Part shown: positions 2,542-60,639 of the stretch, piece by piece
Position numbering within the stretch: position 1 is the stretch's first letter
How the letters are laid out: the number at the start of each line of letters is the position of its first letter
Source of the DNA: a virus
Virus record (IMG/VR): IMGVR_UViG_3300047548_001261
Span: 17,896 to 81,895 of that record
Strand: one strand, 5' to 3'
DNA length: 64,000 nt
Translations under genes and position numbers: made by a program
Notes under the pieces: model-generated
Told to the model about the DNA's origin: nothing
Seen by the model: only the letters and a program-made list of their open reading frames with translations
Databases searched by the model: none

Positions 2542-2694
2542 ATGAAAAAGCTACGAATTATCTGGTGGAACATCAAGTCAACCGCCGCATTAAAACTATA
2601 CGACTTTCTGTCATTTATCGGCTTGTGTGAGGGCGACTTTGGCAAGTATGCGGTTGGTGTGTTGGCGAAGCTTGAGGTCGAAGACCCCAGATGA
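2542..2694 (+). CDS. Small hypothetical protein (50 aa)
   Basis: MKKLRIIWWNIKSTAALKLYDFLSFIGLCEGDFGKYAVGVLAKLEVEDPR, followed by a terminator. Confidence 0.4.
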   Translation: MKKLRIIWWNIKSTAALKLYDFLSFIGLCEGDFGKYAVGVLAKLEVEDPR

Positions 2695-2750
2695 TAGCCA
2701 CATGATCCAAGCGACGTAAAAAATTTAAAACTCCTCCTGTTGGACCTCTT

Positions 2751-2783
2751 GGCCCGGTTGTTCCCCTCAACCGGGCCTTTTTT
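2751..2783 (+). terminator. Rho-independent terminator
   Basis: GGCCCGGTTG-ttcccct-CAACCGGGCC followed by a T run. Confidence 0.8.
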
Positions 2784-2856
2784 ATGCCTGTTGAAAAATA
2801 CGCTGAAAGGTTTAAACTGCATCAGACACCCCTCCCCAAATTAATTGAGCAAATCA

Positions 2857-5800
2857 ATGGCCAACGAAGCACAAATAGATTTAGCCGTCGACGTAAATGT
2901 CCAGATAAAAGAACTGAAACTGGACACAGAGAAGCTAACCAGCAAAATCAAAGCCGCAGTCGGTAGTTTAAAAGATATCCCGATAAGCCCTAAGCTGGCT
3001 ACAGATTTCAAAGAGTTGGATAAAGACGCCGCGAACCTTAGTAAAAAAGTCCAGGATGCGTTTGCGAAAATATCTAAACAAACCCCAGTCGCCCTTAACC
3101 TTGCGGAAAAACTTCGGAAAGAATTTCTATCCGGCGCAAATGCGGTGGACAAAGACGGTAATATTATCGGTAAGCAGCTACGAAGATTCATGTTGCAACA
3201 GCTGGAGTCGGTGCACGCATACGCGAATCTAGATAAGAAAAAGACATTGTGGGGGCAATTTGTCGATATAGAGGGGCAAAACATAGCTACTGCTAAGAAG
3301 ATGCTGACGGACATGTCTACCAAGATGTCTGCGGAGGCGTCTAAGGTTACTGTCGCCCAGACACAAATGGCGCGGAGCCTGAATCAAGCTAGCGAATCAC
3401 TAAAGCTGGGTATCGGTGCCGCAACAAACGGCATTTCTTCACAAGTATCCAAAACCATTTCCGATGTTAACTCGTTGGCGGAGGCTTTCAAATTCCTTGG
3501 GTTAAAGAATAAAGACAGGCAACTCCTCCTCGACCCTACGCCAACAGCGGAAAACTATGGTCGGTTGGTAAAAGTCCTGGAAGCGGCCAGAGAAAGGTAC
3601 TTCATTCTTGCTGCACAAGTCCATAACAATAAGAAGGCAGAAGAAGAGTTGGGGGTGTCCTCCGAGCAGGTTGCTGTTCACTTGGCAAAGGTTCGGGACG
3701 AGATCGACCGACAGCTCCCCAAGTACCGTGCCTTGGCGGAGGAGCAGGCACGGAAGGTAAAGTTGGACAAGGAGTTAGCGAACCAACAAGCAAGGCTACA
3801 GAAAGCCTTGTCAACAGTTACCGACTCCGGCACCAAGCCTTTGCGAGACCAGATCGAAGCCTATAACGAACTTCTCAGGATTCAAAGGGCGATCCGGGCA
3901 AACTCCGGCACCGACCTGGGGGTTAAATCTACCAGGGACACTCTTGCCCAGCTGAAACTTCAACTCAAGGCTACCGAGCAGATCGCCACCGCACAATCCT
4001 TAGTGGATAGAAGTGCCGACCTTGGGACTAGGGAACAAGCCGCTGCCAGAAGTAAACTCAACAACTTGTTGATCCAGTACAAGGACTTGTTGGCTGGGGA
4101 CACTTCTGCGGAAGTCTCCGCGAGTAAGCAGGCTTTAGCAAGACTTGAAGAAAGATTGGCCAAGGAAAAGCAAATCGCGGCTGCGGAAGAACGTTTGGTT
4201 CAACTCACCGCCGCTAGAGCGAAAAGCAGCCTGTCAGACACCCAAACCCTCTTGCGGCTGAAGAAGGAAGAGTTCGACGTCACCCTTGCCTTGGAGAAAG
4301 CAAAAGGGCTTGGTAGGGACGGCTCCGCACAGGTTCTTAGAGAAGTCGAAGCGCTCAAGCAAAGACTGGCTACTGAGGAAAAAGAACTATCCACCCTGAC
4401 CAAGCTGAAAGAAGCCAACAAAGAGCTTTACTTTAGGAGGAGCGCTACCGCCCCTTCAGCCTTAAATACCCAAAGGCTTGGGTCGGGTGCTCCAGCGCAG
4501 GCAATGGGCGCACAGGAGTTTGCCAAGCTGAAATCATCTGTAGAAGCGTATTCTAAGGCAATTCAGCAAGCCCAGGACGGCGTGGCTCAGATGTCAGCGC
4601 GCGGACTTCATTACGCCCTCGCGCTGACGGCTGCGTGGGAAAAGGACCGGGAGACTTTACTCGGAGTTATTGCCGTTCAAGAGCAACTTCAAAAAGCACA
4701 GGCCGCCACTCAACGAGTAGGCACTGCAAAAGGCAACGATGCCGCTAAGCTTATCGCCATGCGGGAAGAGGTTACTGCCCACCAAAGAATCGTTGATATT
4801 TTAGGTGTACAAGGTAGGGCACAGTCTGCCGTTGACCAAGCGACACTTGCCCACTCTCGTGCTAGGGTGTCTGCCTTACAAGGCGACATCGCAATGATTC
4901 GGCAACAAGTCAATGAGACAAACAGGCTGGGGGAGTCATACACCTCCCTGTCGTCTGCTTTCAGGTCGTTCTTGCGGTATGCCGTGGAGATGGCAGCCTT
5001 CTATCAAGGGTTGTCTGCCTTCCAGGCTGCGGCTAAATCAGTTGTGGACCTTGAAGACGCCCTAAAAGGTGTCCAAGCCGTCGCCCGCGCAACTGACACG
5101 GAAATGGAGAAGGTTGCTGCATCGGTAAAACGTGTCGCCATTGATACCGAGTTCTCGACCAACGACATAGCCGGTGCGGCCCAAACCTTATCCCAGGCGG
5201 GTGTTGGTATCGGCGAGATCGGGGAAGCCTTAGATGCAACCAGCTTGGCTGCATCTGCTACTGCGACATCGCTAGCAGTCACAGCGGACGTCTTGACAAC
5301 GATGCACAACGTCTTTAAAGACATGAGCTTCACAGAGATCGCTGATCAGATGACGTCAACGATCAACTTGTCAAAACTGACGGGGGCAGAGCTAAGCACG
5401 ATCCTGAGCAGGGCTGTGGAGGTCTCAGATTCATTCCACATCATTCCGGCACAGATGAACGCAGCCTTTGCTGTGCTGAGAAACGCAGGTATCAAGGCAA
5501 GTACGATCTCCACAGGGTATAGGGAATCCTTGCTGGAACTGTTCGCGCCTGACGCCAAGACACTTAGCTTCCTTGAGAAGAGGTATGCAGAGCTTGGGCA
5601 AACCTTATCGCAAGGAGCAATCGCGGAGTTGTTCCAAGGGTTTGCAAACTCCGCTGACCCTATTAGCGCAGTTACAGCAGAGTTGGATAAGCTTGGGTTC
5701 GCCACATCCGCCTCATCAGACTTTGCTCGTGTCTACAGTGTTCGGGCAAAGAACGTCCTGGACGTTTTAGTTAAGCAACGTGGTGAGTACGTAAATTTAA

Positions 5801-17394: not shown

Positions 17395-19268
17395 ATCGGT
17401 CTTGGACGCATAAGAATATTGCGAGGAGTATTCAGTTTAGTTCGAAAGGGGTCCTTCTTTGGCCCACAAGTGACGACGCACCGAACGGGTGGGGAGAACC
17501 TTTTGATACGATTACTGGTACGATAGGGGGGCCGAACCCAAACGTCTTACTGACATACACAGGGCCTACGGTAGGTATTAAACGAGGAGTCAAAAGGTCG
17601 CAGGCTGGTAACTGTTACTGGCGCGGCCCGCAAGGCAGAGTTATCTCTTGGCAAGGCCCTTGGGGCTTTCAAGTCGAATCCCCTGCACACTACTTCGGTA
17701 CACCGTCGTACTCGTCCTCGTACGAAATAGCTCTGGCTGCAAGGGCTGGCGCTGCTCTATCCTCCATCGGGTACACTCAGACTACATCTTATATCCCGAT
17801 AAACCCTTCTAACCCAACAGGCCCAGGTACATGGCTTATCCACGGGTCTCGGTTTTCCACAAAAATTTTCAAAACTGGTAAATTATTTGCCACCGCGCCA
17901 AATAAAATTCTAGGGGCTGCGGAATTAAATGGGGGGATTATAGCCATCTTAGTCGACCAGACGATCCGGTATAAAAAAGGTCCGGCGGATTGGGTAACTA
18001 TAGGGACTTTAACAGACCCAACTGTCACCGATCCGGCTAAAACACTTTTGCCCTACTTAGGTATATTCTCCTTTGATGCCGACGGGTTGCACGCTATCGC
18101 TATCCGATCTGTCCTTTGCCGGGACAACCTTAACCCGAATTACGCAACGAACCACATAGAGAAAGTCCTGACTAGGGTGTCGGTGTCCCTTGATGCAAAT
18201 GGAAACCTAAGCACTTCCGTTTCACACACTGCCACAGGGGCTTTAGCGCTTATATCGACATTTCACTCGGTCAGTACTTATACCCCACCACCGCCCCCGT
18301 ATACAGACGGTGGATCAGGGAGTTATTCAGACACAACAACGTACTCGTCAGAGGGCGAAACTGTTGTTGCAGCAGGATTTTACGGCAATACAGAGGTCGT
18401 CTTGTCGGCTAAGGCTCACGAAACTTCCCAAATATGGTCCACCTCATCTTCTGGGTACCGTTATGGGGATGGAGGGGAGAACGGGGAAGGGTTATTATCG
18501 CACTCATACACTGAATCGGGGAGTAATAAAGTCGGATTGTATAACGGCGAGGACTTATTGGTTGATTTGTTTGTCAGCACTAAAACTACGTCTTCTTCTA
18601 GCAGTGAGCAATCACATTGGGGTGAGCGTAGGGGCAGCGATTCTGCGTCTGGTGGTTCAACGTCTTCAACTACTTCTTCTACAGAGTCATCTTCTTTACT
18701 ATTCGCAGATGTTTCTGTAAGTCTTCCGGAACTCTGTCTTGTTAAGGAAGTTTCGTACTCCTCGTCAGAAAATTCAGGCTCCTTCGAGGTCTCCGTCGTG
18801 GTTAATACCACCGAAAGTACCTCTTCCTCCACAGCGTCTCATACAAATTCCGTCATTAACCCTAATGTATCCTTCCCTGTAGATCAGAGAGGGCCTATCA
18901 CAACAACAAGTACTGGGCATCTCGAAACCCTTGCAAACATCGGGTTCAATTCAGCAGGTAACTATGAAACCACTAACACGAATAGAGAATACAATGTCGT
19001 AGGGGCCAATCACTTTAGGAGTTACCACCCAACGGCGGGGTATGTAGATATATTTCCCGTCTGTTACGGGGTTGTTGACCCCGTTTCCGGGTTTTGGGCT
19101 ACTGTTCACTACCTGTATACAGTGAATTCCGGAACTGCAGACCTTAGTGTTGTAGAGACGACGACTGCGCAACTACCGAATGGGTTAACCCCAGAAAGTT
19201 TTCTGGGGTTAACTGGAGACAACCAAGCACTTGGCAATCTTCCTAGCAAGGGGGTTTACTTACTTTAA
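17391..19268 (+). CDS. Putative tail / receptor-binding protein, Ser/Thr-rich C-terminal half
   Basis: 625 aa, last gene of the + strand tail operon. Confidence 0.6.
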   Translation: MNRSWTHKNIARSIQFSSKGVLLWPTSDDAPNGWGEPFDTITGTIGGPNPNVLLTYTGPTVGIKRGVKRSQAGNCYWRGPQGRVISWQGPWGFQVESPAHYFGTPSYSSSYEIALAARAGAALSSIGYTQTTSYIPINPSNPTGPGTWLIHGSRFSTKIFKTGKLFATAPNKILGAAELNGGIIAILVDQTIRYKKGPADWVTIGTLTDPTVTDPAKTLLPYLGIFSFDADGLHAIAIRSVLCRDNLNPNYATNHIEKVLTRVSVSLDANGNLSTSVSHTATGALALISTFHSVSTYTPPPPPYTDGGSGSYSDTTTYSSEGETVVAAGFYGNTEVVLSAKAHETSQIWSTSSSGYRYGDGGENGEGLLSHSYTESGSNKVGLYNGEDLLVDLFVSTKTTSSSSSEQSHWGERRGSDSASGGSTSSTTSSTESSSLLFADVSVSLPELCLVKEVSYSSSENSGSFEVSVVVNTTESTSSSTASHTNSVINPNVSFPVDQRGPITTTSTGHLETLANIGFNSAGNYETTNTNREYNVVGANHFRSYHPTAGYVDIFPVCYGVVDPVSGFWATVHYLYTVNSGTADLSVVETTTAQLPNGLTPESFLGLTGDNQALGNLPSKGVYLL

Positions 19269-19353
19269 GTTCCAGCGGAGCCGCGTCCGCTGGGTTGGTC
19301 GTGTTTCTGGAAGTCCAGTTCAGAGCGCACCGACCCTTAACGTGGCGTTATAC
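19269..19353 (+). other. attC site 1 (R'' missing)
   Basis: L'' GTTCCAGC at 19269 ... L' CCTTAAC-gtggc-R' GTTATAC (19347-19353). Confidence 0.7.
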
Positions 19354-19573
19354 AGCAATTTCCAGCGTCGCATTCCAAAAGTCCCGCCCCAAAGGCGCAA
19401 TCATGGCAATGCGGCTCTCCATCGTCATTAAAAATTCCGTCTTCCTCGCAATTTCCAGTTGGCTCGTCACACTTACAACAAAGTTGCCGCGTTCCAGGAT
19501 AATGCGTGGCATTCCATCGCTCATGGCTGCCCTGATCCATAGCGTGTCTTTTTCCACCAGGCCATTCGTTCAT
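19337..19573 (-). CDS. Cassette 1: Cys-rich hypothetical protein (putative Zn finger)
   Basis: MNEWPGGKRHAMDQG...CCKC...CHDC; stop lies inside the attC1 L' box. Confidence 0.7.
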   Translation of the reverse strand: MNEWPGGKRHAMDQGSHERWNATHYPGTRQLCCKCDEPTGNCEEDGIFNDDGEPHCHDCAFGAGLLECDAGNCCITPR

Positions 19574-19586
19574 TTTTTGTTCCAGT

Positions 19587-19683
19587 GCATAACTCTTAGT
19601 TCAAGCGGACAATCCGCCATTTAACGCATTTGCGTGGTTAAATTTCAGTGTGTGGCGGCTTGCCACTTAACACGGCGTTATGC
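19587..19683 (+). other. attC site 2
   Basis: GCATAAC-tctta-GTTCAAGC...ACTTAAC-acggc-GTTATGC, 97 bp. Confidence 0.9.
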
Positions 19684-19860
19684 ACCATATCCGCGTTCAA
19701 ATACTTCATATCCAAAATTCTTGCCAAATGGATTATCTTCAGCGCATTCTTTAGCCAATTCAGCCGTCTCGAATTTAGCTATTTCATCGCCGTCTTTATC
19801 CATTAGCGGTGTGTACCCGCCACTTTGTGTTGTTAGCATTACGAAAAAATCGCCTTCCAT
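19678..19860 (-). CDS. Cassette 2: small hypothetical protein
   Basis: GGAG RBS; MEGDFFVMLTTQSGG...; TAA stop is the reverse complement of TTA in R'. Confidence 0.75.
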   Translation of the reverse strand: MEGDFFVMLTTQSGGYTPLMDKDGDEIAKFETAELAKECAEDNPFGKNFGYEVFERGYGA

Positions 19861-19878
19861 TTTTTATCTCCAGTTGAC

Positions 19879-19962
19879 GTATATCCCATCATTCAAGCCG
19901 ACGCTCTAAGCATCAGCTCATTGTTTAGAATCTATCCCGCGAGGCTTAATCTTGCGTTATAC
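19879..19962 (+). other. attC site 3 (degenerate R'')
   Basis: GTATATC-ccatc-ATTCAAGC...GCTTAAT-cttgc-GTTATAC. Confidence 0.8.
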
Positions 19963-20241
19963 GCACTGGGTTTCGTCGATAGCGTAAACACTCACAGGTT
20001 TTTCTCCAAAATGCGGATGTGTGATCCGCTTTTGTGGCGGATACCCTGCCCACTTTCTGCGTATCGTTTTTGACTCATCACCACGCTTCGGGTACCCTAA
20101 TTTTATGTGGATTTCGTCGTATTCAGGCCCACGCAAGCGGCGTTCCCAATAGTCGTTTGTCGCGCGATATTCCTCTGTCTTTTCGCCTTTGGCTATCGCG
20201 TGCCAATATTCAGCCTTTAGATGCAACGTTAAAATACGCAT
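19957..20241 (-). CDS. Cassette 3: ASCH/PUA-like domain protein
   Basis: LTLHLKAEYWHAIAKGEKTEEYR (GxKxxExR ASCH motif); ATG lies inside R'' of attC4 and TAA inside R' of attC3. Confidence 0.8.
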   Translation of the reverse strand: MRILTLHLKAEYWHAIAKGEKTEEYRATNDYWERRLRGPEYDEIHIKLGYPKRGDESKTIRRKWAGYPPQKRITHPHFGEKPVSVYAIDETQCV

Positions 20242-20337
20242 AACTCATAGCTCCAAGCGACGCAGTGCCGCGCCACGGTATTTTATTAAATTTAAGATAA
20301 GTGGCGCGGCACTGCGCTCCTGAGCATGGTGTTACGC
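20238..20337 (+). other. attC site 4
   Basis: GCATAAC-tcata-GCTCCAAG...long stem CGCAGTGCCGCGCCAC / GTGGCGCGGCACTGCG...CCTGAGC-atggt-GTTACGC. Confidence 0.88.
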
Positions 20338-20627
20338 CCTTTTAAAATATGACTCAAATTCCGCTCGCCATGTATCCATGTATCCCTGTATTGCTCATAT
20401 AGCCCTAGCATCCAGTAAATTACATAAGCTTGCTCTTCTTCCGCTTTCTTTGGTATGTCGTGACCTAATTCACGCAAATTGCGCGATAGCTGTCCGCACC
20501 AAAAATTAGGGCGGCCTAGGATAAATCTTGTTTCGTTATTTAGTTCAATTGTTACTTTTTGGCACAACAATCCGGTCAACTCATGCCCACCGACCTGTGG
20601 CGGTTGTGTAGTTTTGGTTTGGTTCAT
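20292..20627 (-). CDS. Cassette 4: hypothetical protein
   Basis: Core RFILGRPNFWCGQL...AEEEQAYVIYWML; starts inside attC5 and ends inside attC4. Confidence 0.7.
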   Translation of the reverse strand: MNQTKTTQPPQVGGHELTGLLCQKVTIELNNETRFILGRPNFWCGQLSRNLRELGHDIPKKAEEEQAYVIYWMLGLYEQYRDTWIHGERNLSHILKGRNTMLRSAVPRHLS

Positions 20628-20684
20628 AGTTCATCGCTCCGTTAAGGTTTCGTGTCCGGCTGGCTGGTTAGCTTTGCGTTAGGT
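20562..20684 (+). other. attC site 5
   Basis: GCACAAC-aatcc-GGTCAACT...GGTTAGC-tttgc-GTTAGGT, 123 bp. Confidence 0.75.
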
Positions 20685-21586
20685 ATACTCCGCAAAATAT
20701 GCGCTATTACATCCACAGTCCAGCCATTTCCTAGCATTCGTTTAGCCTGATTATCAGAGACAGAATCAGTGTACCCCTCTGGCACGGTTTGGAGTCTTTC
20801 GCACTCTCTGCGGGTATAGTGCCTGTACGGCAACCTTCTACCAAATGCGTCAGGATGTCTGCCTATCGGCATTGAAGTAAGTACATTATCTTTTGCCACT
20901 GTCGTTAAACAATTCGATTTATTCCTGTTACTTTCGCGCACCTCTAGGCATTGTGTTATCGGGATAGATTTATTGCAATCATCCCTAACTCCTCTTTCGT
21001 TTAATCGTCGCCCCAGAATAGTCGCTTTGTTTAGATACCTTCCCCGTATCGCGGCCGGTGAAATAACCTCAATATCATCCAAAATATCAACTAGGTTTAT
21101 GTTTTTATTCTCCGGCCGCTCGATATTTGGTATGTTTGTCCAATATAGCCTTACTCTGTTCTGTGCGGAAAGCAGCGAAGAATTTATCTCAATGGGCAAA
21201 ACCCCAAGTTTGTCACTTATTACATCTTGCCACTCCTTTTTCATTCCGACGTTTTCAAGTAGGAAATATTTTGGCTTGCATTCTTTCATCAGCCTAACAA
21301 ATTCAAAGAATAACTTACTACGCGGGTCTTCAAAATTAAGTTGCAGCCCGCTAGATGAGAACCCTTGGCACGGTGACCCTCCTATCAGCAAATCAATCTG
21401 TGGTAAGTCTGCCGCTACGACATTGACCACATTTCCAATCCTGATAATTTCTGGATAATTTGACTCTGATACCTTGATAGCGTGTTTATCTATTTCGCTG
21501 GAATAATAGGCTTTAACTGGTATTCCTGCGCGCTCCAAAGCTATACGGCCACAGGACATTCCGTCAAAAAGCGATAGTACGTTCAT
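20642..21586 (-). CDS. Cassette 5: DNA (cytosine-5)-methyltransferase
   Basis: Motifs I (SLFDGMSCG), IV (GSPCQGFS), VI (ENV), VIII (QNRVRLYW), IX (RECERLQTVP), X (LGNGW). Confidence 0.93.
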   Translation of the reverse strand: MNVLSLFDGMSCGRIALERAGIPVKAYYSSEIDKHAIKVSESNYPEIIRIGNVVNVVAADLPQIDLLIGGSPCQGFSSSGLQLNFEDPRSKLFFEFVRLMKECKPKYFLLENVGMKKEWQDVISDKLGVLPIEINSSLLSAQNRVRLYWTNIPNIERPENKNINLVDILDDIEVISPAAIRGRYLNKATILGRRLNERGVRDDCNKSIPITQCLEVRESNRNKSNCLTTVAKDNVLTSMPIGRHPDAFGRRLPYRHYTRRECERLQTVPEGYTDSVSDNQAKRMLGNGWTVDVIAHILRSIPNAKLTSQPDTKP

Positions 21587-21618
21587 CCAATTTACCTATT
21601 CGTTGTAAGTAAAAACCA

Positions 21619-21682
21619 GCCAGACCCTGCGCTCCAGAGCGACGGCGGAAAAGCACCGCCGCGCCTGAACTATGCGTTGGGC
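21619..21682 (+). other. attC site 6 (degenerate R'')
   Basis: GCCAGAC-cctgc-GCTCCAGA...CGGCGG/CCGCCG stem...CCTGAAC-tatgc-GTTGGGC, 64 bp. Confidence 0.75.
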
Positions 21683-21683
21683 T

Positions 21684-21908
21684 TCAGCCTATATCGTCTA
21701 AGTAATCCTTGAGTGCAACATAAGCTCGCGCAAATGCCTCTTTTCTTGATGGTGAATTGTTAATTTTTATCTCTGCATCGCCCCATTTGCCAGGTTCTTT
21801 GCCTCTTCGGTCATAGACAAAAATATTCCAGTCTGTAATCCCGTTGTGACCAATTTCCAGTGCCAGCATTGATTGCTGGGCATATAAATCTAAAAAATCT
21901 TCTTCCAT
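21684..21908 (-). CDS. Cassette 6: hypothetical protein
   Basis: GAGG RBS; 74 aa filling the space between attC6 and attC7. Confidence 0.75.
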   Translation of the reverse strand: MEEDFLDLYAQQSMLALEIGHNGITDWNIFVYDRRGKEPGKWGDAEIKINNSPSRKEAFARAYVALKDYLDDIG

Positions 21909-21930
21909 ACAAGCCTCTTAATTATCTATA

Positions 21931-22052
21931 GCCCAACAAGTCAGTCAAGCTGGACGGTGCGCCTGTGGCGCGGGTTAAAGTCAGTGTTTCGGTAAGGGCC
22001 AGTGCGCTAATCAGGTTATTCCAGCGCACCGCCCCTTACCTCTGCGTTATGC
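21931..22052 (+). other. attC site 7
   Basis: GCCCAAC-aagtc-AGTCAAGC...CGGTGCGC/GCGCACCG...CCTTACC-tctgc-GTTATGC, 122 bp. Confidence 0.88.
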
Positions 22053-22054
22053 AC

Positions 22055-22228
22055 TTACATGTCCAGCAAGCTGCGCACAACATCAAGCAACGTATCAGCA
22101 ATCTTACCGTCTTTGCCGTAGTCGGCGGCAAGGCGGCGAAGGCGCTTATAGCAAGCTTCGTCAACTGCGTTGTTATCGTCTCTATCTTTCAGCAATTCTT
22201 CAATCAATTCTTCGTCTGTCATGTGCAT
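22055..22228 (-). CDS. Cassette 7: small hypothetical protein
   Basis: MHMTDEELIEELLKDRDD...; first ATG is inside R'' of attC8. Confidence 0.65.
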   Translation of the reverse strand: MHMTDEELIEELLKDRDDNNAVDEACYKRLRRLAADYGKDGKIADTLLDVVRSLLDM

Positions 22229-22321
22229 AACTCTTAGTTCAATCGGACAAGCCGCCATTTAACGCATTTGCGTGGTTAAATTTCAGTGTGTGGCGGCTTG
22301 CCGCTTAACACGGCGTTGGGC
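22225..22321 (+). other. attC site 8 (near-identical to attC2)
   Basis: GCATAAC-tctta-GTTCAATC...GCTTAAC-acggc-GTTGGGC, 97 bp. Confidence 0.9.
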
Positions 22322-22322
22322 C

Positions 22323-22622
22323 CTACCAGCGGCGGATATTCGCAAAATCCCAAAATTGTCGGCGACCCTCAGCATCGGTTGCGTCGCTCCATAGCAAAGC
22401 TATCCGCTGGCCCGTCATTGCCTCGACAACACCGTTAATTAGCCCGAGAGCTCCAACGGCGTATCCGCCGGTTACGCCTAGCTCATCAACCTGCACCGTC
22501 GGGTGATCTGCCAGCGCATGATTACACGGCACGCGGTTGCACATCAGCGCATGAATTGCGTTTCTGTCGTCGTTGTACGCGCCATTTAGTGTGTCGATGG
22601 CTTTTTGTATTTGCGTTGCCAT
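22323..22622 (-). CDS. Cassette 8: hypothetical protein
   Basis: GAGG RBS; NRVPCNHALADHPTVQV...VGALGLING. Confidence 0.75.
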   Translation of the reverse strand: MATQIQKAIDTLNGAYNDDRNAIHALMCNRVPCNHALADHPTVQVDELGVTGGYAVGALGLINGVVEAMTGQRIALLWSDATDAEGRRQFWDFANIRRW

Positions 22623-22637
22623 ATTGGCCTCAATTTT

Positions 22638-22685
22638 GCCTAACGTTACATTCGAGCGGACGCGTGGTAAGCGCCGCTCATTTAC
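22638..22685 (+). other. attC site 9 (R' missing)
   Basis: GCCTAAC-gttac-ATTCGAGC-ggacgcg...gcgcc-GCTCATT, then an HNH remnant with no correctly spaced GTTRRRY. Confidence 0.65.
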
Positions 22686-22819
22686 CCAGCCCCGTTCGCC
22701 TGCACCTGTGAATTCAGGTTAAGGGTGCCTGCTAATCTTCCAGTGAGCTTATTCGTGCCCTGGTTAGCCTTCCAAGTGAACTCGCCGGTTTCCTGCTCGT
22801 AATTTACTAAATCTTTCAT
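22682..22819 (-). pseudogene. N-terminal remnant of an HNH endonuclease
   Basis: MKDLVNYEQETGEFTWK...GRLAG resembles the N-terminus of 57125-57604 (LKELLHYDEETGIFTWK...GQIAG); stops after 45 aa. Confidence 0.65.
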
Positions 22820-24849
22820 AGTTGTATAACATTCTCAGCCACATCATCTTCCCGGTGAGTTACCGTAAGCGACTGGCCACAAAAAGAGTTTAACGCAAGC
22901 ATACATTGCAGACTCACATCCTTATCCATATCGGCGGAAACTTCGTCCAGGATCAGGCAGTCCAGGTTCGTCGTCGATAACCTAACAAGCCCAAGCTTCA
23001 TTCCAAGACCCATCAAAGTTTTCTGCGCACCCGATGCCGACGACTTACTAAACACATGGTCATTCTCTTTATAAGAGATGGCGCCATTGTGGAGCAGCAC
23101 ACTTTGAATATCTCCCTGCGTCGCTGTCTTGGCAAACTCCGAAGCTACAGAGAAGATTACGTCGTTCGCCTCGGAGACAATACTTGCCCTGTGAGTAGAA
23201 AGAACCTGTACAATTTCGGCATAAAGCTGAGCTTTGTCGGAGTTTTCCTTTTCCAGTTCTAGCGCTTTCACATGTTTGGCAAAGGCGTCTTGTGCAGTCC
23301 GTAAAGCTTCCTGGAAAGTTCTTAGCTCAGAGGATGCAGCCTCGAATGCCTTGCGGTTATCGGTAGAGTCCTGACAAACCTTATTGAGTTGCGCCGTTAA
23401 CTCGCTGAGGTTTATCAACCCGCCGGCAGGTGGAGTCAATGCTGCAAACTCCGTCGTTAGCTGGGTAAAGTCGTCGTTCTCTCTCTGGGTCTGCTTATTT
23501 TGCTGGGTTTCCTCAGCGATTTTCTTTGATAATGCACGGGCTTTCGTCGTTAAATCATCAAGATTATGCCCAGGGTTTTTACCTAATGCGTCATTCGCTG
23601 ATGCTAAATCTTTCTTCGCCCTTTCGACCTTTTCCACATAGGATTCGTAAGCGTTGACAAGTTTAGTGTTGGCACGAACCGCTTCGCTTGCTTCAGAAAG
23701 CCTTGCTTTCGCTTCCGCAACCTTGGACTCTAGCCCAGGAATGCTATTTGAAGCCTCTGCCAAAATCTTTTCAAGCGTAGGTAATTCGTGGTAGCCGTCA
23801 TAAGGTCTCTTGCACTCAGGGCAAACAGCATCGTGTACCGCAGACCGAAGCCGCTTAACCTCGTCTTGCTTATCGCGCAAAACACCGTTTGCCGCAGTCA
23901 ACAAACCCCCAAGGTGTGCGGTTTCGTCCACGATTTCTTCAACCTTTTCGACAGGCTCTCTTTCCAACCTCGCGAGGATGTCCTTATAAGTTGAAACCTT
24001 TTCAAACTCCTTATCGTACTTCCGTTGATCTTTCTCTTGTTGATACAGACTAGCAACCTCAGCCTCGTCCTCGACAGTATCGAACAAAGGCTGCAAAGCT
24101 AACCCGTCCAAAGCTTTACGTTTGGTATCGTAAGCGTCCACAGCTTTGTTATGGTTCACTGCTTCCGTCAGCTGTTTCGTCAAGGATGCTGTTTGTGTGT
24201 CACATGCCTCGCTTGCAGCCTTAAGCCCGCTTAGCGCCTTTTCTGTGTCGGATATATCGCTGGCAAAGATGGTCCTGGCGGTAACATTTTCAGCCACATC
24301 GTCGTCGCTAAGAATGTCTGAAGCATAAGCCGTCGCCAAGGTTGTAAAGTTTGCCTCCCCCTTCCTGGCCGCCTTCACAACCTTGTCCAGCACATCCACA
24401 CCAATACAAGACTCGATAAACCGCTGAAGTTCAGACCCCTCCATGTCCAGCAAATGCTGAGGGGACCCTTGCGGGCTCATATAAATTTGATTAAATTTCG
24501 CTTTGGTAATGCCCAACTCTTCAACTATTGCCGCATTGACTGCTGTGTGACCTCTGACGAACGGCTCTGCCGAACCCCTTGCGATGTTACTCTCCTTGGA
24601 CGATCTCGTCACAGTGAGCCCTGAGCTCAGCGTAAGCACGATCTTGAAGTCCTTTGTGCCCCGACGAATTAAGTCTTTGGTGTCGCAAGGGGCGACGCTG
24701 TTACCGAACAGCGCAACATGAATCGCTTGTAACACCGTGGATTTGCCTTGGTAATTCTTGCCTTTGATGAGGTTTGACCCGTCGGCGAAGTCCAAGGACA
24801 ACTCACTGAAGCGTTTAAAATTGGTCAGGTGTAAAGATTTAAGCTTCAT
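22816..24849 (-). CDS. sbcC: SbcC/Rad50-like ATPase (recombination nuclease subunit)
   Basis: LTNFKRF, Walker A GKNYQGKST, coiled coil with CPEC zinc hook, signature SASGAQ, Walker B LILDE. Confidence 0.92.
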   Translation of the reverse strand: MKLKSLHLTNFKRFSELSLDFADGSNLIKGKNYQGKSTVLQAIHVALFGNSVAPCDTKDLIRRGTKDFKIVLTLSSGLTVTRSSKESNIARGSAEPFVRGHTAVNAAIVEELGITKAKFNQIYMSPQGSPQHLLDMEGSELQRFIESCIGVDVLDKVVKAARKGEANFTTLATAYASDILSDDDVAENVTARTIFASDISDTEKALSGLKAASEACDTQTASLTKQLTEAVNHNKAVDAYDTKRKALDGLALQPLFDTVEDEAEVASLYQQEKDQRKYDKEFEKVSTYKDILARLEREPVEKVEEIVDETAHLGGLLTAANGVLRDKQDEVKRLRSAVHDAVCPECKRPYDGYHELPTLEKILAEASNSIPGLESKVAEAKARLSEASEAVRANTKLVNAYESYVEKVERAKKDLASANDALGKNPGHNLDDLTTKARALSKKIAEETQQNKQTQRENDDFTQLTTEFAALTPPAGGLINLSELTAQLNKVCQDSTDNRKAFEAASSELRTFQEALRTAQDAFAKHVKALELEKENSDKAQLYAEIVQVLSTHRASIVSEANDVIFSVASEFAKTATQGDIQSVLLHNGAISYKENDHVFSKSSASGAQKTLMGLGMKLGLVRLSTTNLDCLILDEVSADMDKDVSLQCMLALNSFCGQSLTVTHREDDVAENVIQL

Positions 24850-25867
24850 TTGATTCTTCCAGTAATTGTTTGAATACCTCTTGGGCGTCGGCACTCAAGC
24901 TATCGGCAATCTTTTCGACCCAGTGAAGTTTGGGGCCATCTTCATCCATAATCACGTCTGTCTCAGCTTTCAGGGACCGAGTATTGGGCTTGATTGCGAT
25001 CAAGGTTTCGGACGTTTTATACCACTCGGCAATCCTGGAGTTGATGGCAATGGTCTCACCGATGTCCACGGTGCCGGTTATTTCGATGAACTGTAAAGGG
25101 GCGTCCAGCGGATAGGCAAGGAAATCTTTGTAGTCGAGGGACCTGAACCGACCATCTACCGGCCACACACACTCCTTTGTCCCATCTACGGAAATAAACT
25201 TATCCGTCATCTCCCCAAACGACATCGGTAAGACGGACCCCAACATCGTTACACCTATCATTGGCTCCCGATAATTGTGCTCATGGCCGGAGATGATCGC
25301 GTCGAAATGCTTCATTGCGTGACCGCCGTGCTCGTCAGACATCAGGTGTGCTGCTACATTAGGCCTTAAATAATTTTCCGTCTCTGTCCCAGGTTGGTCG
25401 CCAAAGTTGCAGTGAAGTACCAGGATGTTGTACTTTTCAGTGTTCGGAAAGTTTTTGGCGCTTGCCAGCATCGTATCAAACTTTTCTTGGGTCAACTGGT
25501 GAGGTAGCAGGGTGTACTTTGTGGACTCAGTTTCAAAGAAGTAAGGTTGTTCCCAAGCAATTGTGCAACCGGTTTTGCGAAGTAGATTTACTGCCGATTC
25601 TTTTTCCGTGTTGTTGGATACATCGTGATTCCCTGAAAGGACGACTTCGCATGACGCGGCAAACATGTAACCTTCGACAAAGGTCTCTGAGTTGCAAGAG
25701 AAGCTGTCGAATAAATCCCCAGCCTGGATAATGCTTCCCTTGTACTCTTCGGTAAACCATATTAAAAGGTCTTTCTTGTACTGCGCCCACCGTGCCGCAG
25801 TTTTGGTTGATGTGAAAGGGAAAGGTTTTCCCAAGTGGATGTCGCCGACTATTGTTATGTTATTCAT
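24839..25867 (-). CDS. sbcD: SbcD/Mre11-like metallophosphoesterase nuclease
   Basis: GDIHLG, GDLFD, GNHD, GHEH motifs. Confidence 0.92.
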   Translation of the reverse strand: MNNITIVGDIHLGKPFPFTSTKTAARWAQYKKDLLIWFTEEYKGSIIQAGDLFDSFSCNSETFVEGYMFAASCEVVLSGNHDVSNNTEKESAVNLLRKTGCTIAWEQPYFFETESTKYTLLPHQLTQEKFDTMLASAKNFPNTEKYNILVLHCNFGDQPGTETENYLRPNVAAHLMSDEHGGHAMKHFDAIISGHEHNYREPMIGVTMLGSVLPMSFGEMTDKFISVDGTKECVWPVDGRFRSLDYKDFLAYPLDAPLQFIEITGTVDIGETIAINSRIAEWYKTSETLIAIKPNTRSLKAETDVIMDEDGPKLHWVEKIADSLSADAQEVFKQLLEESNEA

Positions 25868-27147: not shown

Positions 27148-27371
27148 GGGGTGCTAGCCTCGTGTTGGTTGGTGTCTAAGCTGTTGTAAAGCCGTCGATC
27201 AACCGAGTAAGAAGCTGGCTTTAACCTACCCTCTTTTTCCTTGGAGTCTCGGACAGTCTCGGCACCGGCGTTACGGGCCTCGGTGTAACAGGCTTGCTCT
27301 ATGGACAGGCCTTTGAGTTTTGTACCATAACGGTTGTAGAAAGTTACTTGGTAGTTGCCCGTGGTAATCAT
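27144..27371 (-). CDS. Hypothetical protein
   Basis: 75 aa, ATGA overlaps on both sides. Confidence 0.65.
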   Translation of the reverse strand: MITTGNYQVTFYNRYGTKLKGLSIEQACYTEARNAGAETVRDSKEKEGRLKPASYSVDRRLYNSLDTNQHEASTP

Positions 27372-28393
27372 TGTACAAAGTCCCCTGTAGAACCGAACCC
27401 ATTATCACCCCTTTCGGAGTCCTCCAGACTCGCCACCCGTTCATAAAAATCTAAATTAACAGGGATAGTTAGAAGTTGTGCTATTTTTTGACCGATATTT
27501 ACCTCGTAAGCCTTATCTCCTAAGTTATATAGATGAACAAGAACCTCTCCCGTATATCCGCTATCAATACACCCGGCTCCGACCTCTATTTTATGCTTTA
27601 CAGATAACCCGCTTCTTGACCAAATTAGGCCGACGAAGCCATCTGGTACATTGATTTTTATCCCTGTCGAGATTATTTGACTACCTCCAGCCAGTATTGT
27701 TGTCTTGACGCAGGATAATATATCGAGACCCGCATCTAATCTGACATTTTTTGTTAACTGGGAACCAGTAGATTGCCCAGAATCCGCTAGCTTACCTTTT
27801 GCTGACCTAGCAGCATTATGTAAAGCTGTGTGTTCTCCCCTCGTCATAACTTCCAAATTACTTAAGGAATTGTTTAACCTGTTTTCATCGACATGGTGGA
27901 CGTCAAACTCTGGATTTAAATACCAACCCCCTTCTATTTCTTGCAGAAACCTGTATTGGTGTGTAGCCCTTAAGTAATGCTCCATAATCAACCTGTGTAG
28001 GCGTATATCATCGTCGCAAGTCCTATAGGGGTGTGTGTAGTTTTTCACTAAAACGTACCCGTTAGGCCCTACACGAATACCAGACACCCAAGAAGAGTTT
28101 TCAGGGCCTTTTACTCCGAACTGGTGGTTAAGCTCTCCCACCATTCTTTTGCTACGAGCGACCTTACCACAATCATACGAGCAAGTTATGTCACCCGGAT
28201 TTACACGCTTAGCTAAGTGGCTTGGCTTTAAGTGGAAAGGTTTTGCACAAACCGAGCACTGTACGTTGTTAGTCGCCCTGAATCTCACGCCCATACACTC
28301 CTTAGAGCAGCAATGGTGTTTATTATTCTCCATACGCTGTCTGGACAACTCAAAAGGTTTTCCGCAGACTTCGCAGTCAACTATTACTTGCAT
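27368..28393 (-). CDS. dut: Zn-finger/HNH endonuclease - dUTPase fusion
   Basis: N-terminal CxxC pairs, HRLIME and DVHHVDENRLNNSLSNL (HNH); C-terminal trimeric dUTPase motifs DAGLDI, RSGL, GCIDSGYTGE, IAQL, RGDNGFGSTG. Confidence 0.88.
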   Translation of the reverse strand: MQVIVDCEVCGKPFELSRQRMENNKHHCCSKECMGVRFRATNNVQCSVCAKPFHLKPSHLAKRVNPGDITCSYDCGKVARSKRMVGELNHQFGVKGPENSSWVSGIRVGPNGYVLVKNYTHPYRTCDDDIRLHRLIMEHYLRATHQYRFLQEIEGGWYLNPEFDVHHVDENRLNNSLSNLEVMTRGEHTALHNAARSAKGKLADSGQSTGSQLTKNVRLDAGLDILSCVKTTILAGGSQIISTGIKINVPDGFVGLIWSRSGLSVKHKIEVGAGCIDSGYTGEVLVHLYNLGDKAYEVNIGQKIAQLLTIPVNLDFYERVASLEDSERGDNGFGSTGDFVQ

Positions 28394-60580: not shown

Positions 60581-60611
60581 CTTATCTCACTTGTGGGTCA
60601 AATCGGTCTGT

Positions 60612-60639
60612 GGGCGGTCGCCTTACCGTGGCGTTATAT
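60612..60639 (+). other. Half attC relic (L'-R')
   Basis: CCTTACC-gtggc-GTTATAT; 17 of 18 bases match the right arm of attC1. Confidence 0.6.

Follow-up and report, generated by a model that had tools for sequence, protein, structure and literature searches.

A phage genome without an integrase carries a predicted attC cassette array in which every gene runs against the attC top strand

Integrons are usually viewed as bacterial systems, and recent work portrays the cassettes as repositories of genes for defence against phages. A run of short genes separated by palindromes in a freshwater virus raises the question of whether a phage can carry such cassettes, and have them exchanged, while encoding no integrase of its own. 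The virus, IMG/VR record IMGVR_UViG_3300047548_001261, comes from a freshwater metagenome, and its 81,895-bp sequence has direct terminal repeats and a CheckV completeness of 100%. The window that we analysed is a stretch of 64,000 nucleotides (bases 17896-81895 of the record), and coordinates are those of the window unless another sequence is named. At 19257-22700, nine attC-like sites (S0-S8) delimit eight units, each containing a single open reading frame (ORF). The array is positioned between a rightward structural and tail module and a leftward replication and recombination module. Searches of the complete 81,895-bp genome with TIGR02249 and PF00589, which represent IntI and any tyrosine recombinase, gave no match, and serine and Y1/HUH recombinases were searched for in the genome and none was found. 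The lack of a nearby integrase, as reported in an initial annotation of this DNA, thus extends to the complete 81.9-kb genome. A complete integron consists of intI with an adjacent attI and a cassette promoter (Pc), and this genome has no IntI. An attC-site cluster that lacks an integron integrase (CALIN) consists of at least two clustered attC sites without intI, and seven model-supported sites were found here within 2.8 kb. From the sequence evidence described below we conclude that the sites are genuine attC-type sites and that the array is a CALIN.

When the outer edges of the R'' and R' boxes are taken as limits, the sites have the layout R''(7)-spacer(5)-L''(8)...L'(7)-spacer(5)-R'(7) and are 63-123 nt long. 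This box layout and the one-ORF units had been recognised in the initial annotation, although its length range of 64-123 required correction. All eight R' positions that it gave (19347, 19677, 19956, 20331, 20678, 21676, 22046 and 22315) proved to be real, each reading GC or GT before GTTNNNN. The spacers are 5 nt throughout, except on the right side of S8. GTT is present in 9/9 sites and the AAC...GTT combination in 7/9, with one AAC mismatch each in S2 (GTATATC) and S5 (GCCAGAC). A strict GTTRRRY R' box occurs in three sites only; the others read GTTATGC, GTTATAC or GTTACGC, forms that occur too in real Vibrio and aacA4 attC sites. Seven sites are recognisable, and the two at the ends of the array have decayed, their outer boxes (R'' of S0 and R' of S8) being degenerate. 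In attC, strand polarity is determined by an asymmetric extrahelical base in L''. An 8-nt L'' box faces a 7-nt L' box in S1, S2, S3, S5 and S7, with a bulged G on the minus strand. Both extrahelical bases are present on the bottom strand of S1 and S7 (G[T]CC GCTT[G]AAC) at the same spacing as in attC-aadA1 (G[T]CG GCTT[G]AAC), and both were also found in S2 (GCG[T]CG GCTT[G]AAT). No clear instance of the second extrahelical T was seen in S3-S6. The right half of S0 and the left half of S8 were also considered as the parts of one split attC, which was ruled out by L boxes that are not complementary.

Three covariance models were used: R1, which was built from six phage sites; R2, from 16 Vibrio sites only, defined independently via repeat finding; and R3, from Vibrio and class 1 sites and free of phage sequence. 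The reference integrons were In2 on plasmid R100, five more class 1 arrays and the chromosomal array of Vibrio anguillarum (record MK672802). MAFFT mis-threaded S6 and the short class 1 sites; the models were seeded on well-aligned subsets and then extended with the model itself. All three models are home-made and their E-values are rough. When R1 was run with filters off against 91 kb of control DNA, its top match was exactly attC-aadA1 of In2, on the aadA1 coding strand (36.3 bits, E = 4.9e-7), and 14 weaker matches tiled the V. anguillarum array on its top strand. The six best matches of R2 in the window were all in the array and all on the plus strand, with phage scores of 9.4-26.7 bits, S1 reaching 26.7 bits. 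In the class 1 integrons R2 identified ten attC sites at 11.8-29.3 bits without a false match at E <= 3; six of these sites were at independently defined coordinates, and the dfrA27 and aphA16 sites were missed. These scores therefore calibrate those of the phage sites. The top seven matches of R3, for which 81,995 bases were searched on both strands, were S1 (36.2 bits, E = 4e-7), S6 (30.2), S7 (24.6), S2 (22.1), S4 (19.7), S5 (18.9) and S3 (16.6), all on the plus strand, and the eighth-best match genome-wide had E = 1.1. S0 and S8 were not detected by R3 in this search of the whole genome; R1 gave 9.8 bits to part of S8. Thus, seven of the nine attC sites proposed in the initial annotation were returned as top matches when both strands were searched with R2 and R3. 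R3 also identified three sites at 26.6-32.4 bits in the published CALIN of phage TJE1. With default filters, which weak sites could escape, it found no match in 171 kb of 19 unrelated phage loci.

Folding of the bottom strands was expected to give paired R boxes, an open spacer and L boxes with a bulged G. This full attC shape was obtained for S1 (z = -4.3), S2 (z = -1.7) and S3 (z = -7.1). S5, S6 and S7 were structured (z = -2.6, -4.9 and -3.3) but their R boxes paired poorly, and S0 (z = -2.4) folded without the attC shape, whereas S4 and S8 gave no stable fold. Formation of a stable hairpin was clear in S1, S3, S6 and S7 (z of -3.3 or lower) and moderate in S5, S0 and S2. We also considered whether the sites could be intrinsic terminators. 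This was ruled out, as 9 terminator-like sites were found against 7.2 expected and none coincides with S0-S8.

The polarity of attC was read from attC-aadA1, which on the aadA1 coding strand is GTCTAAC-AATTC-GTTCAAGC...GCTTAAC-TCAAGC-GTTAGAT, and was confirmed by the position of IntI in three further sequences (G005, described below, G006 and G007) and in the Vibrio record. The same polarity corresponds to the plus strand in the phage. In a canonical cassette the ORF is on the attC top strand and attC is downstream of it, an arrangement that is typical but not obligatory. The phage array departs from this arrangement in every unit: all eight ORFs are on the attC bottom strand (0/8 on the top strand), each preceded by the attC of its own cassette. 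The bottom strand of attC is the recombinogenic one, which folds and which IntI cuts. The initial annotation had overlooked this feature. Coding on the minus strand is supported by the PF00145 match of the methyltransferase, by PHROG matches of ORF3 and ORF8, and by positive codon log-odds in 8/8 units; alternative frames on the plus strand had lower codon log-odds in every unit, and these values were negative in all but one. In contrast, 15 of the 18 annotated coding sequences of the Vibrio array are on the top strand, as are the ORFs beside all three TJE1 sites. Inversion of the ORFs relative to attC is the most distinctive feature of the array.

Because the genes are on the attC bottom strand, attC constitutes the intergenic region and the 5' leader on the mRNA. 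Read in the mRNA sense, attC opens with the TAA of the preceding gene, located in R', and closes with a Shine-Dalgarno sequence, which is in either L'' or the spacer, and with an ATG that is part of R'' (GTTATGC) or beside it. In units 1 (frame 19348..19557), 2 and 3, the crossover point directly follows this TAA. Immediately upstream of orf6, the bottom strand of S6 overlaps a match to a sigma-70-like promoter (TTGACT-16-GATAAT, 10/12) that runs from 21948 to 21921 on the minus strand and could be an internal promoter brought by the cassette's own attC.

The initial annotation had proposed that the array can be shuffled. A related phage in X3, an independent wastewater metagenome run from a different study, shares the flanks and attC sites, but the intervening DNA is different. 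Contigs of X3 matched the window from the tail gene to 19271 at ~90% identity and from 21952 rightward at ~98%, the right block containing S6, orf7, S7, orf8, S8, orf9 and SbcC. Inside the array to the left of 21952, the matches were confined to attC: S1 at 19604-19685, S2 at 19879-19956 and S4 at 20578-20682. The DNA between these matches was 637, 669 and 637 nt long in X3 and 607, 892 and 1269 nt long in the window. Because X3 retains the flanks and attC sites around other DNA, the cargo has been replaced between close relatives, with the borders of replacement at attC sites, and the turnover was recent, since the cargo differs while the right flank is 98% identical. Comparison with a related phage thus bore out the proposed exchange of cargo but was mixed with respect to the precision of its borders. 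The S2 match starts precisely where R'' does and ends on the crossover G, whereas the left edges of the S4 and S6 matches fall 16 and 21 nt inside the sites.

Homologs of ORF3, the phrog_625 protein of unit 3, were drawn from IMG/VR and GTDB genomes. Matches to the attC models surround the ORF3 homolog in six loci (L010, L011, L012, L015, L027 and L028), and every R3 match at the ORF3-homolog loci was on the strand opposite the ORF. R1 agreed, with the exception of two marginal same-strand matches (E ~2-5). L015 belongs to IMGVR_UViG_3300033074_001918 (G005), a 43.5-kb contig whose content is phage-like, with genes for a portal-like protein, for one that is crAss001_48-like and for another of 1932 aa. 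This contig encodes a 330-aa integron integrase that scores 347.6 bits with TIGR02249 (cut-off 265), directly upstream of a 648-aa ORF and the portal-like gene. At least nine attC sites follow intI on the canonical side and strand, and the contig thus has a complete integron (L024, 10478-17203). The cargo, consisting of a PAPS-reductase-like protein (phrog_424), phrog_986, phrog_11375 and the ORF3 homolog, is entirely on the bottom strand and is transcribed toward intI. Inversion around ORF3 homologs was also seen in two contigs of bacterial metagenome-assembled genomes (MAGs), one adjoining an integron integrase. In a Verrucomicrobia MAG, the inverted ORF3 homolog is 2-3 cassettes from a 424.9-bit IntI on the same contig, and a Gammaproteobacteria MAG contains an 81%-identical ORF3 homolog and an IntI (431.9 bits) array with phage-type attC sites. 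By blastn, ORF3 and the left half of S3 are 80% identical in DNA sequence to a provirus contig (G001, containing locus L010), in which the S3-like site is upstream of the ORF3 homolog.

How might cassettes move in a genome that lacks an integrase? The model that we consider probable is that this CALIN resides in an integrase-less phage genome and that its cassettes, bounded between the G and the TT of the GTT triplet, are exchanged by IntI acting in trans. IntI from the host or another source appears to be the best mechanism. According to this model, the array would be transcribed leftward via read-through from the replication-module operon, and cassettes would be gained, lost and swapped by IntI supplied from a host chromosomal integron or an IntI-encoding co-infecting phage. 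The orphan C5 methyltransferase and the small phage proteins that make up the cargo would represent exchangeable accessory genes, probably with counter-defence functions. If replication forks follow gene direction, the minus strand would be the lagging-strand template; forks co-directional with the genes would thereby place the attC bottom strands on that template and favour attC folding and excision. Folding and excision are known to be easier when the bottom strand of attC is on the lagging-strand template (PMC13108822). IntI is also able to insert cassettes at non-att genome sites (bioRxiv 10.1101/2022.09.11.507474), and it is plausible that an off-target IntI insertion founded the array.

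The main rival to crossover by IntI is general homologous recombination, in which attC-derived palindromes would serve as homology patches between co-infecting phages and phage machinery, such as the SbcCD-like proteins, would carry out the exchange without IntI. We regard this as rather unlikely, although it accommodates several observations: X3 retains the order of S1/S2, S4, S6 and S7 at ~89-98% identity while the DNA around S4 has been replaced, the S4 and S6 matches begin inside the sites, the same attC (S1 = S7) is joined to unrelated ORFs, and SbcC and SbcD genes abut the array in a genome without an integrase. Several features nevertheless point to crossover of the IntI type. The repeat shared by S1 and S7 (97% over 95 nt) begins 2 nt before R'' and ceases at the GTT of R', S1 continuing as GTTATGC and S7 as GTTGGGC, and the S2 match in X3 stops at the crossover G. 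Of the 4 variable positions, the R'' boxes of units 6-8 match the preceding R' at 4, 4 and 3 and their own R' at 2, 2 and 2; in S6, R'' (GCCCAAC) is perfectly complementary to the preceding R' (GTTGGGC). Moreover, both extrahelical bases, which are of use only for IntI binding, are kept at canonical spacing, and the same inverted array type adjoins a real IntI in G005. Several findings weigh against exchange by IntI in trans. The register test was modest overall (24/32 versus 21/32, permutation p ~0.04), and units 1-2 favour their own R'. The genome encodes no integrase, and the presence of IntI in the host is an assumption. S4 (z = +1.3) and S8 (z = 0) are unfolded or degenerate, as is S0, which fits a decaying relic too. 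In X3, where the attC order is retained, S4 has different DNA to its left and to its right, and two left-hand match edges are internal to the sites. Homologous recombination between attC sequences that are conserved would account for this pattern at least as easily as crossover by IntI. The promoter and the directions of transcription and replication are inferred.

A static fossil was also considered, in which illegitimate recombination or one off-target IntI event would have brought in part of a bacterial or phage integron array a single time, and attC would now serve as a spacer with translation signals. Both end sites are half-degenerate, the left one keeping a good right half and the right one a good left half; S4 is unfolded and mostly coding, an integrase is lacking, and the ability of IntI to use non-att sites is documented as cited above. 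However, cargo that differs between close relatives with a 98%-identical right flank points to recent turnover, strong folds have been kept by S1, S3, S6 and S7 (z = -3.3 to -7.1), and the near-identity of S1 and S7 argues against long decay, such that we consider a fossil very unlikely. The suggestion that the sites belong to a family of phage intergenic RNA or DNA hairpins (terminators, RNase sites or translational-coupling elements) that merely resemble attC is close to refuted, and we give it almost no credence. Intergenic hairpins are common in phages, and the sites, which contain stop, Shine-Dalgarno and start signals, correspond exactly to the intergenic regions. Yet models built purely from attC single out these sites genome-wide and in a strand-specific manner, the best match of the phage-derived model in 91 kb was attC-aadA1, and homologous cassettes are found in integrons with IntI. 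Exchange of attC cassettes by IntI supplied in trans remains our preferred explanation.

The array can be compared with five known systems. CALINs in the virulent phages Tetrasphaera TJE1, Pseudoalteromonas PH101 and Polaribacter P12002L were reported by Qi et al. (2023, Front Microbiol, PMC9892861). The initial annotation, which gave CALINs as described mainly in bacterial replicons, had missed this work, and the category of a CALIN in a phage is therefore not new. These CALINs were reported with at least two attC sites each, three being illustrated for TJE1, and with methyltransferase cargo, and IntI1 recombined 5/6 of the phage attC sites (PMC9892861). The present array resembles them as an integrase-less attC cluster with an orphan DNA methyltransferase in its cargo, found there in lytic phages, and its R3 scores (16.6-36.2 bits) are comparable to those of TJE1 given above. 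It differs in having seven recognisable and two degenerate sites with eight cassettes, in carrying its ORFs on the bottom strand, and in the natural cargo turnover seen between related phages. Class 1 attC-aadA1 (In2/Tn21, R100) has nearly the same boxes (GTTCAAGC and GCTTAAC L boxes, 5-nt spacers and GTTRRRY), and class 1 cassettes share the spacing of the extrahelical bases and heterogeneous lengths. Unlike class 1 integrons, the phage array has no IntI, no visible attI or Pc and no resistance genes, its genes are antisense to attC, and its replicon is a phage.

The chromosomal arrays of V. anguillarum and V. cholerae likewise consist of tandem small genes, mostly of unknown function, that are separated by attC. 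They share with the phage array the right-half motif CCTTAAY-NNGGC-GTTATRY, and near-identical attC copies on unrelated genes, as in S1 and S7, are a property of the Vibrio cholerae repeats (VCRs). In contrast to the Vibrio arrays, the phage attC sites are heterogeneous, no intI is adjacent, and no gene is on the top strand. Chromosomal integrons also contain individual inverted cassettes with their own promoters, such as those encoding toxin-antitoxin systems. In these cassettes, as in the phage, the ORF runs antisense to the top strand of attC, which makes it independent of Pc, and the promoter match of unit 6 overlaps its attC. Inverted chromosomal cassettes are individual exceptions, whereas here and in G005 inversion extends to the entire array, which is co-linear with the phage operon. 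The PeSL units of T4-type phages, reportedly described by Arbiol et al. in 2010 as 'mobile regulatory cassettes', are said to consist of a promoter and a hairpin and to be exchanged by homologous recombination. They resemble the array in that small accessory genes are flanked by recurring stem-loops in intergenic DNA, at which modular gene swaps between related phages have their borders, but they are not known to have attC-type boxes or any connection with IntI.

New here are the size of the array (eight cassettes), the placement of translation signals in the R and L boxes, and the direct evidence of natural cargo turnover. The uniform inversion is also new, and is common to an IntI-encoding phage-like contig and to ORF3 cassettes near bacterial IntI. 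We tentatively raise the possibility, which we would not yet favour, that phages keep an integron lineage and cassette pool of their own with whole arrays inverted, co-linear with operons and probably on the lagging-strand template, and that some encode IntI (as in G005) while others are integrase-less clients borrowing it from the host or a co-infecting phage. If so, cassette turnover would be maximal during lytic replication, and the arrays would be rapidly reshuffled stores of counter-defence genes, the mirror image of the defence-gene stores recently described in bacterial integrons. A long, well-preserved array in a lytic phage would place the same machinery on the phage side of the arms race. 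The uniform inversion offers a testable handle on how orientation, transcription and replication control cassette dynamics, and annotation pipelines that presume top-strand ORFs will mis-call such cassettes. The coordinates of the sites, cargo genes and flanking genes are given in Table 1.

Table 1. Sites and ORFs of the array and its surroundings (window coordinates)
Feature	Position	Strand	Remarks
Last ORF of rightward structural/tail module, 625 aa	17391..19268	+	Stop codon inside S0 spacer; no family match
S0, degenerate left-end site	19257-19353	+	Good right half CCTTAAC-GTGGC-GTTATAC, poor R'' TACTTAC; crossover G 19347
Unit 1 ORF, 69 aa	19348..19557	-	GTG start (19557); codon log-odds +0.25; TAA is the final triplet before the crossover
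Unit 1 alternative overlapping frame, 78 aa	19337..19573	-	Cys-rich; ATG 19573; codon log-odds -0.09
S1, attC, 97 nt	19587-19683	+	GCATAAC-TCTTA-GTTCAAGC...ACTTAAC-ACGGC-GTTATGC
Unit 2 ORF, 60 aa	19678..19860	-	Acidic; TAA in S1 R' box; codon log-odds +0.33
S2, attC, 84 nt	19879-19962	+	Crossover G 19956; R3 match and fold
Unit 3 ORF (ORF3), 94 aa	19957..20241	-	phrog_625; ATG in S3 R'' box, TAA in S2 R' box
S3, attC, 100 nt	20238-20337	+	Perfect 16-bp inner stem
Unit 4 ORF, 111 aa	20292..20627	-	Extends 40 nt into S3; codon log-odds +0.08
S4, 123 nt	20562-20684	+	Boxes present; overlaps ends of ORF4 and methyltransferase ORF
Unit 5 ORF, C5 cytosine DNA methyltransferase, 314 aa	20642..21586	-	PF00145, E = 3.9e-43; phrog_116
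S5, attC, 64 nt	21619-21682	+	GCCAGAC...GTTGGGC
Unit 6 ORF, 74 aa	21684..21908	-	Codon log-odds +0.31
S6, compound site, 122 nt	21931-22052	+	R''/L'' then inner hairpin; L' box on hairpin arms
Unit 7 ORF, 55 aa	22055..22222	-	From ATG 22222; further in-frame ATG 22228 in S7 R'' box; codon log-odds +0.36
S7, attC	22225-22321	+	97%-identical copy of S1
Unit 8 ORF (orf8), 99 aa	22323..22622	-	phrog_21281
S8, degenerate right-end site	22638-22700	+	Good left half GCCTAAC-GTTAC-ATTCGAGC-GGAC; poor L', R'
Small ORF in gap between array and SbcC-like gene, 45 aa	22682..22819	-	Codon log-odds +0.34
SbcC/Rad50-like ATPase, 692 aa, first backbone gene of leftward module	22816..24894	-	Pfam AAA_23, AAA_15, SMC_N
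Lone degenerate attC-like site between minus-strand ORFs	60584-60639	+ (array orientation)	R1 17.9 bits, E = 0.024; no R3 match

The cargo had been described in the initial annotation as phage accessory genes, and the C5 DNA methyltransferase, phrog_625 and phrog_21281 agree with this description. No restriction enzyme adjoins the methyltransferase gene. A second possible start of unit 4 is an in-frame TTG (20567) that belongs to the R'' box of S4, and S4 itself is probably decaying. No attC matches were found at 19 orf8-homolog loci in other phages when default filters were used, which weak sites could escape, suggesting that orf8 is an ordinary phage gene outside this array. Neither orf8 nor the SbcC-like protein retrieved a usable relative when used as a query against viral contigs, nor did the SbcC-like protein against metagenome contigs. 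Similarly, the exact S1 DNA pattern had no match in viral contigs, and megablast of the region against cultured phages gave no match.

Both flanks are core phage DNA, as had been proposed: a tape-measure-like structural module on the left, and SbcC, SbcD and replication genes on the right. The tape-measure-like gene is a 2608-aa ORF upstream of the 625-aa ORF. Distant phage relatives of the SbcC-like gene carry the annotation 'DNA repair exonuclease', and the minus-strand genes beyond it encode SbcD, an HNH-dUTPase, DNA polymerase, helicase and primase. Because the structural module runs rightward and the genes from SbcC onward are on the minus strand, the two transcription modules meet at the array. 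The SbcC- and SbcD-like genes (22816-25867, minus strand), which correspond to a palindrome-specific nuclease, directly adjoin this array of long palindromes. Their position may reflect the chance of module order or may be relevant to hairpin processing. The HNH-dUTPase is a single 341-aa ORF (27368-28393, minus strand) in which an HNH endonuclease region (residues ~5-200) is joined to a dUTPase (220-337).

Additional observations concern the related sequences. G005 contains a second, weak tyrosine recombinase at L023:3565-4878. In L010 (1503-4004), an S3-like attC appears to be split, with its left half at 3951-4004 and its right half at 1503-1557. A simple insertion was ruled out, as an ISL3-family transposase (2637-3914) and three small ORFs are located between the halves. 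The L010 array may be host flank rather than prophage, because it abuts a non-IntI tyrosine integrase at the provirus edge. In MK672802 (23843-28053, locus L002), which is annotated as 'Vibrio phage Va_90-11-286_p16', thrS, infC, rpmI and rplT are found beside intI. These genes are the usual chromosomal neighbourhood of the Vibrio superintegron, and because they adjoin intI, this 'complete integron in a phage' may be host DNA within generous prophage borders.

In runs X1, X3 and X5, short contigs of low depth whose flanks are unrelated matched 41-45 nt near the 3' end of the methyltransferase gene (20694-20738), a stretch that is probably a conserved methyltransferase motif. In X1 only, contigs of the same kind matched the left half of S1 (19589-19633), and S1-type attC halves therefore exist in other genomes of the source sample. 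Within the window itself, the right half of the lone site at 60584-60639 (GCCTTACC-GTGGC-GTTATAT) closely resembles the right halves of S0 and S6.

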